From a phage: DNA of 64,000 nt. Positions 15,137 to 59,632 of the stretch are shown piece after piece. The DNA lies in the NCBI GenBank assembly GCA_024614665.1, contig GCA_024614665.1_4861.1; one strand, given 5' to 3'. The translations under genes and the position numbers were made by a program. How positions within the stretch are numbered: the first letter of the stretch is position 1; the number at the start of each line of letters is the position of its first letter. A model generated the notes under the pieces. It had not been told where the DNA came from. It searched no databases and saw only the letters and a program-made list of their open reading frames with translations.

Positions 15137-15163
15137 CCCTACCTAACCGAAGTTAGGTAGGGG
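15137..15163 (-). terminator. UUCG-loop hairpin terminator
   Basis: CCCTACCTAAC-CGAA-GTTAGGTAGGG then U-rich tract; downstream of 15169..15474. Confidence 0.65.
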
Positions 15164-20230: not shown

Positions 20231-20292
20231 TGTAATGCCCTCAAAAGGTATTGCTGTCACAACATGAGGATAATGCGTAAAAAGACAAAAAA

Positions 20293-20316
20293 TTAAGGGG
20301 TCCGAAGACCCCTTAA
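20293..20316 (-). terminator. UUCG-loop hairpin terminator
   Basis: TTAAGGGGTC-CGAA-GACCCCTTAA immediately after the stop at 20320. Confidence 0.55.
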
Positions 20317-20319
20317 TGA

Positions 20320-21896: not shown

Positions 21897-21922
21897 ACCC
21901 TCTTACCCGAAGGTAAGAGGGG
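21897..21922 (-). terminator. UUCG-loop hairpin terminator (identical copy at 49098..49123)
   Basis: CCCTCTTACC-CGAA-GGTAAGAGGG downstream of tmk. Confidence 0.6.
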
Positions 21923-28120: not shown

Positions 28121-28181
28121 GCCTCGCTCCTGGTATTTGATTAAGGGGGGTCATAATACTTCACAGGAAAATAATAAACAG

Positions 28182-28203
28182 TATAGGGGCCGAAGCCCCT
28201 ATA
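28182..28203 (-). terminator. UUCG-loop hairpin terminator
   Basis: TATAGGGGC-CGAA-GCCCCTATA downstream of the secreted protein gene. Confidence 0.55.
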
Positions 28204-28211
28204 CGCTGTGT

Positions 28212-28601
28212 TTAGTAATCGTACAAAGGATACCGCGCGGAAATTTCTTTACCTACCCAAAAAGTTAACCGTAGGTTATTAACTCTGCAGTGTGTTCGTA
28301 CTGACGGGGCAATTGTCGCTTTAACTTTCGACGAACACGTACCCGCATCTATTGGCTGGTACGTCTTGCGCTTTGTGTTAACGAGATAAAAGCCACCACC
28401 TGGACACAGTTCAGAACGTCCGTAGTTAACCACGGCAAACTCACCATTTTCCACCGTCACGACTGGTTCATCTTTGTCGCTGAATTTCACAGGTGCGTCA
28501 GTTTCCCACATTGGTTTGTATTGCGGGAAGTCCTGAACAGTAAACGCGTATACTGACGTAGTAACGCAAATTATAAACACAGCTAATACAGCACGCATCA
28601 T
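28212..28601 (-). CDS. secreted/periplasmic protein with N-terminal signal peptide, 129 aa
   Basis: MMRAVLAVFIICVTTSVYA hydrophobic leader with A-x-A-like cleavage context; four Cys in the mature part. Confidence 0.55.
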   Translation of the reverse strand: MMRAVLAVFIICVTTSVYAFTVQDFPQYKPMWETDAPVKFSDKDEPVVTVENGEFAVVNYGRSELCPGGGFYLVNTKRKTYQPIDAGTCSSKVKATIAPSVRTHCRVNNLRLTFWVGKEISARYPLYDY

Positions 28602-28603
28602 AT

Positions 28604-29080
28604 CTAGTCCTCTTCCAGATAGGGTAGAAGCCAGTCCATTTTCTCCAAACGGTGAATCATGTTGCGAGTGTTTGGCGATACCTGTAAGGCATCGTGGAAC
28701 TGTTTTTTGAAGTGATGCCAGTGATAAGAGAAAGGTTTAGTTGGATAGCCCGCTTCCTTGAGAACCTCTTCCCATTCCAACTTCTGGATAAGGTGTTCGT
28801 CAACCAAAACCACAACTAAAGCCTTCCAGGCACTCCGACGAAAATGCCGGGACAACCGATGTTTTAAATCGGCATAACTTTTTCTTTTACTGGACCGTAT
28901 TGCTGGTGAAGTCTTACTGTGATGAAAAGAACGTCTCGTAAGATTCAGAATCTTAACAGGAGTACCCCTAAGCGAACTGTCTGCAATATTCAGTTCATGC
29001 TGAGGAACAAGCTCCACACGGCGGATGACGTTTATACGGGTTCCATCCGTATCTCGTGTTTCGTAAGCAACACGTATCAT
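28604..29080 (-). CDS. hypothetical basic protein, 158 aa
   Basis: ORF track. Confidence 0.5.
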   Translation of the reverse strand: MIRVAYETRDTDGTRINVIRRVELVPQHELNIADSSLRGTPVKILNLTRRSFHHSKTSPAIRSSKRKSYADLKHRLSRHFRRSAWKALVVVLVDEHLIQKLEWEEVLKEAGYPTKPFSYHWHHFKKQFHDALQVSPNTRNMIHRLEKMDWLLPYLEED

Positions 29081-29097
29081 TATACACTCTCGCTCGT

Positions 29098-29583
29098 TTA
29101 GACGAATTGACCTTCTGCCATCGAAAGAAAAATGGGAACGCTTTCAGCGTAATGAGTTAAAAGCTTTTCCTCCGGTGGCGTGTGTGACGAAATAACATTG
29201 TAGTTCGTCATACGAAAATACCGTTGGCCGTCAGCAGCAATATACCATCGGTCAATCTGGAAGCCTTGTTGGTGAAAGAATCCCAGCGCAGGAATATTAG
29301 TCGGGTGAACACGACAGCTGATGTGTTTACGATCGGAGTTCTGTTGAAGGTACTTAAGCATAAATCTACCGACGCCGCCGCGTCGCGATTCCTCGGGCAC
29401 AACCATATAGACCAAATGGCCAGGTTCCCATGCCATGATTCCCCGCACGATATCATCCTCAACAAACATCGTGAGTTTAATAGGCTCCTCACGAATACTG
29501 TTTAAGTCGCGTACCCATTCAACCAGTTCAGGATAAACGTTCGCAGGAATCTTATCCTCGACCACATTAATAACAAGCATCAC
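29098..29583 (-). CDS. GNAT family N-acetyltransferase, 161 aa
   Basis: VPEESRRGGVGRFMLKYL (motif A) and ALGFFHQQGF. Confidence 0.7.
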   Translation of the reverse strand: MMLVINVVEDKIPANVYPELVEWVRDLNSIREEPIKLTMFVEDDIVRGIMAWEPGHLVYMVVPEESRRGGVGRFMLKYLQQNSDRKHISCRVHPTNIPALGFFHQQGFQIDRWYIAADGQRYFRMTNYNVISSHTPPEEKLLTHYAESVPIFLSMAEGQFV

Positions 29584-30218
29584 TTCTCTCCACTAAGCAG
29601 GTATCTGGCTTCTGCCAATGATAGGGACGGTTTTAACAGCATGTGCAGCGGCAGGATTGTTGAACGGTGAAACTGTGCCGGTGTTTTTGCCAGGTATTCC
29701 AGATAGCGATTGACCGACATTTCTTGCCAATCGATAGTAGGACGAACCCAACTTATCTGTAACCATTTCCCCAATGAGACGTCACGCTTACCGCGTGGCA
29801 TAATTATACTTAACTTGTACCCGTGGTCAAACTGACGCGGCGGATGACCTGGCTCCCAAGGAACCTCGGGACCTGGCGCATCTGTGAGAAATCCTTCTTT
29901 AATTAACACATTTCTGATGGTAGCGAATATCCGTCCTCGTTGCGCGGTGATCTCTTTGACGTGTGCCATGGCATTTAGTTTACGTTTGGTAATCGCGGTA
30001 GAAAGAGCACTAACAAATTGCCCCTCGACATACGGCGCATTCAAACAGCTACGAAACGGCACGACGTAAAACGCTTCCCACAACACTTCTTCAGCTGCCG
30101 ACAATAACAACGCTTCTTTCTCAGCAGCAGTAAAATCCACAGATAACATTTTAGTAAATGAGCCTAATATAGCGCTAAACGGTAGTAGTACAGACCGTTG
30201 ACGAAACTGTAATTGCAT
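29580..30218 (-). CDS. hypothetical protein, 212 aa
   Basis: ORF track; overlaps the GNAT start by 4 nt. Confidence 0.5.
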   Translation of the reverse strand: MQLQFRQRSVLLPFSAILGSFTKMLSVDFTAAEKEALLLSAAEEVLWEAFYVVPFRSCLNAPYVEGQFVSALSTAITKRKLNAMAHVKEITAQRGRIFATIRNVLIKEGFLTDAPGPEVPWEPGHPPRQFDHGYKLSIIMPRGKRDVSLGKWLQISWVRPTIDWQEMSVNRYLEYLAKTPAQFHRSTILPLHMLLKPSLSLAEARYLLSGEK

Positions 30219-30282: not shown

Positions 30283-30310
30283 GCCTCTTCTCCCAAAGGA
30301 GAAGAGGGCT
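30283..30310 (-). terminator. hairpin terminator
   Basis: GCCTCTTCTCC-CAAA-GGAGAAGAGGGC with U-run; downstream of 30314..30886. Confidence 0.6.
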
Positions 30311-30313
30311 TAA

Positions 30314-30886
30314 TTACACTTTAGATGCGGTAGTCTGTTGCTTCGCGTTGCTCTTGTTCAGCTTATACTCAACGACTTTGGCACCAATGGCCATCGAATT
30401 GTAAGCAAGCGTCTTAATCGGCCATGTGAAGAACACGGCCTGAGCAAACAAAGGTAAGAGCGCCACAATCAACACATCCGTCAATTCTTGCGGATAGTGC
30501 AGGTGTGTATCCCAGGCCATTGCTGCGGAGACCAGTACGGTGGTAAGCACCAGTAAAGCGATAAGGACTTTCTGAGGACCTTTTAAATTCGGCCACAGGG
30601 TCAATAACGTTTCTTTGGCAAGTTTTTCATTCATACTCTCCACAGCTGCTTTCGCCTGTGATTCAAACGTCTTCGCCATATTCCCAACCTGTTCAAGAAT
30701 CAGGGGGCGTAGTGACGTAAGAATCACGTTAGCAGGTTTAGTGACATCAATTACAACATCACTTCCCAAAGCGGTCTGAGCGGCTGTTTTTAGTCGGGCG
30801 CTCTCTTCCAGGCTTAATTTATTGGTGCCCGCCTGGATAAGAACATCCAACACATCCGTCGAAGCTTCTTGCAAAGACTGCGACAT
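30314..30886 (-). CDS. membrane protein with two C-terminal TM helices, 190 aa
   Basis: Hydrophobic segments VLIALLVLTTVLVSAAMAW and VLIVALLPLFAQAVFFTW. Confidence 0.55.
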   Translation of the reverse strand: MSQSLQEASTDVLDVLIQAGTNKLSLEESARLKTAAQTALGSDVVIDVTKPANVILTSLRPLILEQVGNMAKTFESQAKAAVESMNEKLAKETLLTLWPNLKGPQKVLIALLVLTTVLVSAAMAWDTHLHYPQELTDVLIVALLPLFAQAVFFTWPIKTLAYNSMAIGAKVVEYKLNKSNAKQQTTASKV

Positions 30887-37917: not shown

Positions 37918-37956
37918 TACCTCTCCCTTCGGGGAGAGGTACCTTTTCTTTTTTTA
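37918..37956. terminator. bidirectional UUCG hairpin terminator with U-tracts on both strands
   Basis: ACCTCTCCC-TTCG-GGGAGAGGT then TTTTCTTTTTTT on plus; A-run before it serves the convergent minus gene. Confidence 0.65.
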
Positions 37957-44006: not shown

Positions 44007-44030
44007 AAAGCTTACTCCCCGAAGGGAGTA
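44007..44030 (-). terminator. UUCG-loop hairpin terminator
   Basis: GCTTACTCCC-CGAA-GGGAGTAAGC with U-run; downstream of the 766-aa gene. Confidence 0.65.
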
Positions 44031-44064
44031 AGCTAATCTTAGGCAACGTAATCCTTACGGATTA

Positions 44065-49097: not shown

Positions 49098-49123
49098 TAA
49101 AACCCTCTTACCCGAAGGTAAGA
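49098..49123 (-). terminator. UUCG-loop hairpin terminator (identical to 21897..21922)
   Basis: CCCTCTTACC-CGAA-GGTAAGAGGG with U-run on the minus strand; downstream of 49133..49993. Confidence 0.6.
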
Positions 49124-49132
49124 GGGATACTA

Positions 49133-49993
49133 CTACGGTTTATAATCAACTTCGTTGATCTTACCGCAAGCCGGACAAGCAATGTTCATTGTCTGCGAAG
49201 TGTAGCGATGTGTTCTCGGTACCGTTGCGACATGATTGCGGTTACAGCCGGAACACGTCCAACCGACCACTGGTGCCTTCGATTGTTTCGGGGCAGGAGT
49301 GTCTTCTTTTAACAATGCGACTACCGCGTGAAATTTACGAAGTTCTGCGTTAACATGCGCTTCCCAGTCGGCGTCCAAACGCGCCGTGAACCAACGTTGA
49401 ATCTTCTGGCCAAGGCCGTCTTGATTTTCTTCTTCATGGGACATCACAAACTTGAGATTTGCGCGACCCCACTGCACAACGTTCTCTACTTTAATCCCGT
49501 CTACGGTGTCGCTGATTGGCGTATAGTTAAAAGTTGGATAGGTGAGATAACAAGCTTCAGCTGTTGCAAAGACCGTATTGCCTTCAAACAGCGCCATGGC
49601 CTCATCGCCCTTAGCATCCTTCTGTGCGGCTTCCAATCGTGGGCAATGGAAACCTTCAAGTTGCTGGATTTTGGTCGTTAGCGCATTGATACCCTGCAGC
49701 ACAGCGATACGCTTTTTGCTGTCTGTAATGGTTGCCATTACCTTGCACAACGCGCGCGAGATAGCGCTATACATTGACGTTTTGCGGTTTTCATCGAGGA
49801 AACGCTCTTGCTGCTCCAGGTCGTAAGAAGACAGGCCGTAGCTCTGCCCTTCGACCAACACGACGTAAGTACGACGTTTGTCGCGGTCCAGCTGGACAAT
49901 GGCCGCATCGGTTAACGGATCGCTAGCCAATACTTCGTGGTCGGGAGGTAGGGGGAAATCTGAACTTTTGATGAAATCAGTAATGCTGTACAT
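49133..49993 (-). CDS. hypothetical protein with C-terminal zinc ribbon, 286 aa
   Basis: CSGCNRNH ... CPACG near C-terminus; hairpin terminator 49098..49123. Confidence 0.55.
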   Translation of the reverse strand: MYSITDFIKSSDFPLPPDHEVLASDPLTDAAIVQLDRDKRRTYVVLVEGQSYGLSSYDLEQQERFLDENRKTSMYSAISRALCKVMATITDSKKRIAVLQGINALTTKIQQLEGFHCPRLEAAQKDAKGDEAMALFEGNTVFATAEACYLTYPTFNYTPISDTVDGIKVENVVQWGRANLKFVMSHEEENQDGLGQKIQRWFTARLDADWEAHVNAELRKFHAVVALLKEDTPAPKQSKAPVVGWTCSGCNRNHVATVPRTHRYTSQTMNIACPACGKINEVDYKP

Positions 49994-59537: not shown

Positions 59538-59563
59538 CTCACCTAGGTAATATATATCTGAAA
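59538..59563 (-). promoter_or_regulatory. class-1 promoter-like motif
   Basis: Plus-strand CTCACCTAGGTAATATATATCTGAAA; upstream of 58735..59496. Confidence 0.55.
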
Positions 59564-59598
59564 TCTTTTCTAATCTGAGACAAAAAAAGAAAGGGTAA

Positions 59599-59620
59599 AT
59601 CCCCCACCGAAGTGGGGGAT
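59599..59620 (-). terminator. UUCG-loop hairpin terminator
   Basis: ATCCCCCAC-CGAA-GTGGGGGAT then U-rich tract; downstream of paralog B, followed by class-1 promoter. Confidence 0.6.
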
Positions 59621-59632
59621 TCGCCAGTCTAA

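Follow-up and report, generated by a model that had tools for sequence, protein, structure and literature searches.

We analyzed a stretch of phage DNA of 64,000 nucleotides (contig GCA_024614665.1_4861.1 of the NCBI GenBank assembly GCA_024614665.1), hereafter the window, and focused on an open reading frame (ORF) located on the minus strand at positions 28212-28601, stop codon included. The program-made ORF list gave an ATG start and a preprotein of 129 amino acids (aa), and this product was 100% identical to SPN3US_0090 (RefSeq ACQ60_gp176) and to SEGD1_094; it is referred to here as gp90. Both deposited proteins are labeled "hypothetical protein" in GenBank. A preliminary description had proposed that this locus codes for a phage-encoded secreted protein, and the first part of this proposal was borne out, as the 2.3 kb around the gene showed 99.3% identity to Enterobacteria phage SEGD1 and 99.2% to Salmonella phage SPN3US. 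Both belong to the genus Seoulvirus, 240-kb jumbo phages. The results described below indicated that gp90 is a real gene, that its product is very probably exported to the periplasm, and that it appears to be a soluble, phage-borne form of a known but functionally uncharacterized domain family.

gp90 is a conserved gene under purifying selection

The ratio of nonsynonymous to synonymous substitutions per site (dN/dS), calculated by the Nei-Gojobori method, was 0.22, 0.41, 0.19, and 0.16 when gp90 was compared with its orthologs in SPLA3, EC001, SPAsTU, and ChrisDB, respectively. Full-length orthologs were found in more than 60 phage records, and residues 1-127 of the protein aligned with positions 1-128 of the 129 positions in the phrog_5248 profile, with an E-value of 5.6e-44. 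The low dN/dS values, the number of full-length orthologs, and this end-to-end match showed that gp90 is a real gene subjected to purifying selection. Moreover, reading of the sequence revealed a Shine-Dalgarno element, AAGAGGA, at 28608-28614 of the minus strand, which lies 6 nt before the ATG and within the last codons of the preceding gene, gp89.

The records of the Salmonella phage SPFM series behaved differently. In SPFM5, 6, 7, 8, 9, 12, 15, and 20 (LR535903-LR535917), the gp90 region aligned only as 5-33 short pieces, and the deposited proteins were shortened or frameshifted (P0007, P0010, and P0012-P0014). These breaks look like the outcome of indel-rich assemblies rather than of true gene decay.

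The N-terminus of gp90 has the features of a cleavable signal peptide

The first 19 codons (28545-28601, minus strand) encode the sequence MMRAVLAVFIICVTTSVYA, which, based on its tripartite layout and its conservation within the family, is predicted to be a signal peptide for the Sec pathway and signal peptidase I, with a cut between A19 and F20. The n-region is MMR, with a net charge of +1; it is followed by the hydrophobic core AVLAVFIICV, with a mean Kyte-Doolittle value of 3.5 over 8 aa, and by the polar c-region TTSVYA|FTV, with V at position -3 and A at position -1. In a crude hydrophobicity scan of the approximately 84 ORFs of the window, this N-terminus was the most signal-like, and none of the others came close.

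The layout was then compared among 25 relatives, i.e., 21 diverged homologs and four paralogs from SPN3US. The n-, h-, and c-regions were kept in all of them, although the N-terminal sequence drifts freely. The n-region was positive in 24 of the 25, and the uncharged stretch spanned 9-19 residues. The residue at -1 was A in 24 sequences and G in the remaining one, and that at -3 was A, V, or T. The predicted cut site fell in the same alignment column throughout, with the conserved mature domain starting right after it. The hydrophobic run of several orthologs is broken by N, H, or Q just ahead of this site (VNA|F, THA|F, and NQALA|F), which fits a c-region and not a membrane helix. The AlphaFold model of the protein had values of the predicted local distance difference test (pLDDT) of 48-62 over the signal peptide residues, and high values from about residue 20 on. 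No lipobox of the form [LVI][ASTVI][GAS]C was present at the end of the gp90 signal peptide, where C12 is preceded by F-I-I; this C12, the only cysteine of the signal peptide, is missing from the orthologs P0005 and P0006.

Judged by these features, gp90 has the sequence hallmarks of proteins secreted through Sec and signal peptidase I, namely a positive n-region, an h-region of about 7-15 hydrophobic residues, and small residues at -3 and -1 of a polar c-region, and cleavage after A19 is a strong inference from the rules for this site and from its conservation in the family. Export to the periplasm is thus highly probable, as a canonical signal for signal peptidase I is present in every homolog despite the sequence drift, the mature domain carries an invariant cysteine pair, and the relative YfjS, described below, is annotated as an inner-membrane lipoprotein, so that the domain faces the periplasm there. 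The proposals of the preliminary description that gp90 has an N-terminal signal peptide and is secreted were, in this way, supported by the MMR/AVLAVFIICV/TTSVYA|F arrangement, by its retention in all the relatives compared, and by the periplasm-facing relative. The small cysteine-containing domain that it placed after the signal peptide was also found, as detailed in the next section.

The mature domain is predicted to be all-beta and carries an invariant cysteine pair

Codons 20-129 (28215-28544, minus strand) encode the mature domain of 110 residues, with a computed mass of 12.5 kDa and isoelectric point of 8.5, which ends in ARYPLYDY and, based on AlphaFold2 and conservation, is predicted to be all-beta. 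The model, built with an alignment of nine sequences, had a pLDDT of 82.9 and a predicted template modeling score of 0.74, and it consisted of a short helix and seven strands at residues 47-52, 55-61, 70-75, 80-84, 93-99, 110-116, and 119-126. The C-terminal sequence ARYPLY[DGS]Y was invariant across the jumbo-phage clade.

The preprotein contains four cysteines. Two of them, C66 in the motif C-P-x-G-G (codon at 28404-28406, minus strand) and C89 in the motif G-[TS]-C (codon at 28335-28337, minus strand), were invariant in the 21 aligned diverged homologs, while the other two, C12 of the signal peptide and C105 of a variable loop, were not conserved. C66 lies a few residues before strand 3 and C89 a few after strand 4, so that strands 70-75 and 80-84, which make up a hairpin, are flanked by the two cysteines. 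A disulfide bond would be expected to show such a geometry, and the model suggested that a C66-C89 bond stapling the hairpin is likely.

The search for structural relatives with this model gave few matches. Foldseek found no resembling solved structure in the PDB, with a best E-value of 0.4, and the profile search of the PDB sequences gave nothing better than an E-value of 1. In a library of viral structures, the only matches were uncharacterized proteins from Erwinia jumbo phages. Scans of gp90 and 20 relatives against Pfam, NCBIfam, and PADLOC generated only sub-threshold noise, with the exception of a lead to PF20494 that is analyzed below.

Replacements in gp90 are concentrated in a variable loop

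Substitution counts identified codons 90-111 (28269-28334, minus strand), which hold C105, as a hotspot of amino acid replacement. When compared with SPLA3 and EC001, this loop showed 7.5 nonsynonymous and 0.5-1.5 synonymous differences, with a dN of 0.175, whereas the core (residues 20-89 and 112-129) showed 3 nonsynonymous and 6-15 synonymous differences, with a dN of 0.015 and a dS of 0.11-0.32. The sequence of the loop in SPN3US and SEGD1 is RTHCRVNNLRL, and that in most relatives is RTHRSVNTHQL, a difference made up of seven clustered nonsynonymous point changes. We considered a compensated frameshift as the origin of this segment and rejected it, since all the changes were independent point substitutions. 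C105 was confined to the SPN3US/SEGD1 allele and its closest relatives, and it adds an unpaired cysteine to a protein predicted to be periplasmic. The model had a pLDDT of 66 for residues 101-110, and in the alignment the loop was deleted in the bacterial homologs.

The contrast in constraint between loop and core is sharp, and it is compatible with diversifying selection, which counts as small as these leave unproven. With its small size of 110 aa, the lack of a match to any catalytic family, and the combination of a conserved core with one hypervariable loop, we infer that the mature domain may be a non-enzymatic binding module.

gp90 belongs to a family of small, probably exported proteins

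An exhaustive profile search retrieved 23 proteins with E-values of 1e-3 or lower. Large proteins with Big_2 repeats were among them and were rejected as additive, spurious matches. The remaining members were 108-195 aa long, nearly all of them 110-135 aa, had signal peptides, and displayed the pattern G-x-x-C-P-x-G ... Y ... D-x-G-x-C ... L-x-F ... A-x-Y-P. Family members occupied the position of gp90 in Seoulvirus and Machinavirus phages, and others were found in Derbicusvirus jumbo phages, such as gp205 of Cronobacter phage CR5 (CR5_205).

SPN3US itself carries four paralogs in tandem, gp180-gp183, on the plus strand at 165783-167492 of JN641803 (2067-3776 of locus L013), which is outside the window and about 80 kb from gp90. 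All four have a signal peptide and the cysteine pair, and gp181, gp182, and gp183 have a second cysteine pair. Like gp90, gp183 and CR5_205 belong to phrog_5248, and gp180, gp181, and gp182 belong to phrogs 9424, 17072, and 8968, respectively, which are joined by mutual sub-hits. This PHROG and its three sisters are made up of jumbo-phage proteins of undescribed function and structure, with signal peptides and the cysteine pair throughout, and represent the family of gp90 itself. Based on these sequences, gp90 and gp180-183 would constitute a five-member exported family in the lytic phage SPN3US.

Within the window, gp90 was the only member detected, as the search with hidden Markov models found no second one. 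A weak tblastn match at 49718-49912 was rejected as chance; it lies inside a 286-aa cytoplasmic protein. Outside phages, chromosomal homologs were identified in Serratia sp. DD3 and in several Yersinia species. A degenerate DNA pattern for DAGTSCPAG was also used and gave 56 loci, of which just two, both from Yersinia, were real. Metagenomic homologs lay on short contigs, and the context look-ups found no recurrent neighbor gene.

gp90 is probably a distant relative of YfjS and YafY

The chromosomal homologs from Serratia and Yersinia, which are of the soluble type, are located in CP4-57-like islands with the gene order YagK/YfjJ-family gene, alpA, yfjR homolog, and gp90-like gene; the Serratia island contains, in addition, a 72-aa ORF before the gp90-like gene and antirestriction, RadC, CbeA, and CbtA genes after it. 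BLASTP of the flanking genes gave 38-40% identity for the yfjR homologs and, in Serratia, 64% for yfjX and 59% for yfjY. In E. coli K-12, ypjK and yfjS fill the corresponding place behind yfjR, and yfjS is annotated as "inner membrane lipoprotein YfjS". The product of its neighbor, YfjT, was also considered as a relative of gp90 and was found to be unrelated.

YfjS contains the motif C-E-G-G-S-Y-Y-Y-L-V-D-M-E-E-K-T-V-Q-P-L-M-N-A-L-C, and its counterpart in gp90 is C-P-G-G-G-F-Y-L-V-N-T-K-R-K-T-Y-Q-P-I-D-A-G-T-C; the motif common to gp90 and to YfjS and YafY is C-x-G-G-x-[FY]-Y-L-V-[ND]-x3-K-T-x-Q-P...C. When the alignment of the gp90 family was compared with YfjS by hhalign, signal peptides included, the probability was 90.9%, with an E-value of 1e-6 over 116 columns. 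After removal of the signal peptides and with a seven-sequence alignment of YfjS and YafY, it was 79%, with an E-value of 1.6e-5 over 92 columns, i.e., the whole domain. In agreement, YfjS matched phrog_5248 with an E-value of 8.8e-6, and the Serratia protein did so with an E-value of 4e-19. The AlphaFold model of YfjS, although of low confidence (pLDDT 66), had the same order of seven strands, with the cysteine pair flanking strands 3-4. On the other hand, BLASTP gave no match, and gp90 scored 12.4 bits (E-value 0.17) against PF20494, below the gathering threshold of 27 bits; the best scorer of the family, P0020, reached 14.3 bits (E-value 0.044) and was also below the threshold.

Both groups are thus alike in that their domains, about 110 aa long, face the periplasm and share the strand order and the cysteine pair, and in being borne by mobile elements, which for PF20494 are the E. 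coli cryptic prophages CP4-57 and CP4-6. They differ in that YfjS has the lipobox L-S-A-C, whereas gp90 has an A-x-A site and is expected to be soluble and not lipid-anchored; in that gp90 has an additional variable loop (97-111) and the conserved YPLYxY C-terminus; and in that gp90 is carried by a strictly lytic, nucleus-forming jumbo phage. We consider it probable that gp90 belongs to a superfamily related to YfjS and YafY. As its score against PF20494 is below the threshold and the lipobox is lacking, gp90 is best described, from the sequence comparisons, as a distant soluble relative of PF20494 and not as a member by the Pfam criterion.

Regarding the function of these relatives, the literature on YfjS, YfjR, YpjK, and YfjT yielded nothing functional. 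YafY is an inner-membrane lipoprotein of unknown function, one of only two E. coli lipoproteins that activate Cpx when overproduced, and no phenotype was seen upon deletion of yafY in the assays reported (PMC6538781).

gp90 is the last gene of a putative four-gene transcription unit

Upstream of gp90 on the minus strand, the ORF list contained gp87 (29580-30218), of unknown function; gp88 (29098-29583), a GNAT acetyltransferase according to Pfam and PHROG matches; and gp89 (28604-29080, stop codon at 28604-28606), a basic protein of unknown function. The terminator scans found an intrinsic terminator on the same strand at 28181-28204, 7 nt past the gp90 stop codon, made up of a 10-bp stem with a UUCG loop and of a U-rich tail, and the hairpin of the preceding unit at 30284-30307 (minus strand), which sets the upstream boundary. 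Since these two terminators enclose the genes, gp87-gp88-gp89-gp90 appear to form one transcription unit. Erwinia phage ChrisDB (Machinavirus) and a divergent Seoulvirus, Salmonella phage SPAsTU, keep the order acetyltransferase-gp89-gp90. In SEGD1, gp87 and gp89 are annotated as shorter genes (570 and 210 nt) than in SPN3US and the window (639 and 477 nt); these calls look like under-annotation, because the full-length gp87 and gp89 match PHROG profiles end to end.

Beyond the upstream terminator lies gp86 (30314-30886, minus strand), a 190-aa protein of phrog_8722, of unknown function. Two transmembrane segments are predicted in gp86, around residues 101-119 and 134-152, and no other protein in the vicinity of gp90 is clearly a multi-pass membrane protein. 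The neighbors of gp90 include late-type genes, namely an internal head protein and virion structural proteins, and no lysis gene was found among the Pfam and PHROG matches of the neighborhood.

The motif scan of the window revealed that CAGATATATATTAC occurs in five exact copies on the minus strand, with 5' ends at 59560, 51057, 23332, 21837, and 2695, when 0.35 copies would be expected by chance. Each of them is intergenic and part of the longer consensus TTTCAGATATATATTACYT(A/T)(G/A)GTGA, and is followed, 25-35 nt on, by a conserved AATCGAC box and then by a ribosome-binding site and a gene start. The early operons of jumbo phages have been described as preceded by promoters with a conserved, AT-rich motif about 10 nt long (PMC7598289). 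As CAGATATATATTAC fits this description, it is probably the early promoter of SPN3US, used by the virion RNA polymerase, together with a conserved 5' leader element. An exact copy precedes the gp180-183 array (1970-1983 of the same SPN3US locus) and none is present before the gp87-90 unit, which suggests that gp90 may belong to a temporal class other than that of its paralogs.

Two additional observations were made on hairpins. Between the motif and gp180, at 165729-165757 of SPN3US (2013-2041 of locus L013), there is a terminator-like hairpin, GGCTACCTTCGGGTAGCC, followed by a run of T, which could be an attenuator, a leader structure, or a short RNA. In the window, nearly all the strong terminators have a GC-rich stem of 9-11 bp closed by CTTCGG (UUCG tetraloop), for example those at 59598-59621, 49103-49126, 44009-44034, 37918-37941, and 28181-28204, and also those at 21898-21921, 20292-20317, 15137-15162, and 2733-2756. 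Several of these hairpins read as terminators on both strands, and those at 49103-49126 and 21898-21921 have the identical stem sequence CCCTCTTACCTTCGGGTAAGAGGG.

Discussion

In the explanation that we favor, translation of gp90 from a good ribosome-binding site yields a precursor of 129 aa, which Sec would export and signal peptidase I would cut after Ala19, and the sequence and family comparisons strongly support these export steps. A soluble 110-aa all-beta domain would be released into the periplasm of the infected Salmonella cell, where C66 and C89 would be oxidized to the disulfide that staples the beta-hairpin. The mature protein would be a small module for binding, and it would belong to a superfamily carried by mobile elements, made up of phrog_5248 and its relatives and, distantly, of YfjS and YafY. 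Its ligand could be a component of the envelope or some part of an incoming phage, with loop 90-111 as the putative specificity-determining surface, and binding could protect the already infected cell against a second infection or harm to its envelope. Taken as a whole, from export through envelope protection, we hold this account tentatively, with chances that fall somewhat short of even.

The preliminary description had named superinfection exclusion and lysis modulation as frequent roles of periplasmic phage proteins, a generic remark that our results neither confirm nor refute. The exclusion or envelope-protection role, taken on its own, is possible but doubtful. What suggests it is the presence of five family copies in one lytic phage, the location of four of them, gp180-183, behind an early-type promoter motif, the sharing of the family between jumbo phages and defense-rich cryptic-prophage islands, and the replacement hotspot in loop 90-111 beside a constrained core. 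The functional model is T4 Spackle (Sp), a periplasmic superinfection-exclusion protein. Spackle and gp90 are both small phage proteins with a cleavable signal peptide and a periplasmic location, but Spackle is helical, gp90 is predicted to be all-beta, and there is no detectable sequence relation between them, so that Spackle serves by analogy only.

Several observations weigh against this role. Classical exclusion genes are early genes, and the CAGATATATATTAC motif is absent before the gp87-90 unit. The excess of replacements in the loop amounts to about eight changes and is statistically indistinguishable from relaxed constraint. The searches gave no match to a PHROG annotated as superinfection exclusion or to a PADLOC model, which would still be compatible with an analogous function. 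gp90 is not discussed in the SPN3US papers that were read, the literature search on signal peptides in SPN3US gave nothing functional either, and the terms superinfection, periplasm, signal peptide, and secreted are all absent from a 2026 review on jumbo phages. Finally, the only reported phenotype of a relative is the activation of Cpx by overproduced YafY, i.e., envelope stress (PMC6538781).

This last point leads to an alternative in which gp90 would modulate envelope stress or physiology by engaging a host sensor or quality-control factor. The candidates include the Cpx or sigma-E pathways and the PDZ proteases DegS and DegP, and the effect would be to tune the envelope during the long cycle of a jumbo phage. 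The members of the jumbo-phage clade always end in Y-P-L-Y-x-Y, and several bacterial ones in Y-x-F or Y; the C-terminus of the gp90 clade is similar to the aromatic ends of outer-membrane proteins recognized by DegS, which is a lead only. However, YfjS and YafY themselves lack an aromatic last residue, and the last residue of some family members is N, P, or K. The homology of gp90 with YfjS and YafY is supported, and the response to YafY, a distantly related PF20494 protein, is consistent with this alternative; nevertheless, the Cpx effect came from an overproduced lipoprotein and may be non-specific, and the yafY deletion was silent in the same assays (PMC6538781). We regard this modulator role as rather unlikely.

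A similarly low probability was assigned to a role in lysis timing or in the cell wall, in which gp90 would act from the periplasm on a peptidoglycan hydrolase or a holin, as its inhibitor or regulator, with the T4 antiholin RI and the lysozyme inhibitors Ivy, MliC, and PliC as models. Like these proteins, gp90 is small, apparently periplasmic, and probably disulfide-bonded, and a wall protector would be useful, since SPN3US causes lysis from without at high particle numbers (PMC5105663). This role is weakened by the lack of nearby lysis genes and by the comparison with the known inhibitors: Ivy, MliC/PliC, PliG, and PliI are small, periplasmic or lipid-anchored, beta-rich, and often disulfide-bonded, and no similarity of gp90 to their solved structures was found in either fold or sequence. 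The possibility that gp90 is a spanin of the o-, i-, or u-type was also considered and rejected, given the lack of a lipobox, the all-beta prediction for the mature domain, and neighbors that are not lysis genes.

The export step could be modified if the N-terminus were left uncleaved and gp90 were a type-II inner-membrane protein, tethered as the lipoproteins YfjS and YafY are. These two relatives do work while anchored to the inner membrane, and the uncharged run of this gp90 allele reaches 19 residues (A4-V22). Nevertheless, the orthologs have hydrophobic cores of just 9-13 residues, too short and too polar-flanked for a typical anchor, an N, H, or Q breaks their uncharged run just ahead of the A-x-A site, and the conserved A/G at -1 and A/V/T at -3 in a single column of the 25 sequences would be hard to explain in an uncleaved protein. 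Given this conserved site, a membrane anchor is quite unlikely. Lastly, the reading of gp90 as a chance ORF or a decaying gene with no functional secreted product, which could invoke its annotation as no more than "hypothetical" and its absence from the study of the SPN3US virion and essential genes, is effectively refuted by the dN/dS values of 0.16-0.41, the core dN of 0.015 against a dS of 0.11-0.32, the more than 60 full-length phage copies, the conserved synteny, ribosome-binding site, and terminator, and the confident fold prediction.

The gp90 ORF was already known, as a hypothetical protein in GenBank. What this analysis adds is the case for export, a predicted fold with no solved relative, the putative five-member exported family of SPN3US, the spread of this family to CP4-57-like islands, and the remote homology to YfjS and YafY. 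Without a function, the finding is a modest annotation advance and provides a cheap experimental target. gp90 and gp180-183 are candidates for superinfection exclusion, resistance to lysis from without, or envelope remodeling, and, as SPN3US-like phages are under development against Salmonella, exclusion factors would affect the design of cocktails. The link to YfjS and YafY joins two sets of hypothetical genes, so that one experiment could inform both.

It is conceivable, although on present evidence unlikely, that enterobacterial jumbo phages of the nucleus-forming kind use a diversifying set of exported beta-domains as a previously unrecognized periplasmic layer of phage-phage or phage-host conflict. 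Such proteins might exclude incoming phages or neutralize envelope defenses, with the variable loop setting the specificity, and the CP4-57 and CP4-6 islands would share the domain in the form of YfjS and YafY. If true, this would give a first function to the E. coli y-genes yfjS and yafY. The work on chimallivirus-type jumbo phages has been centered on the cytoplasm, i.e., on the phage nucleus, tubulin, and injected proteins, and a conserved, multi-copy family with the features of exported proteins suggests that these phages invest in the cell envelope as well.

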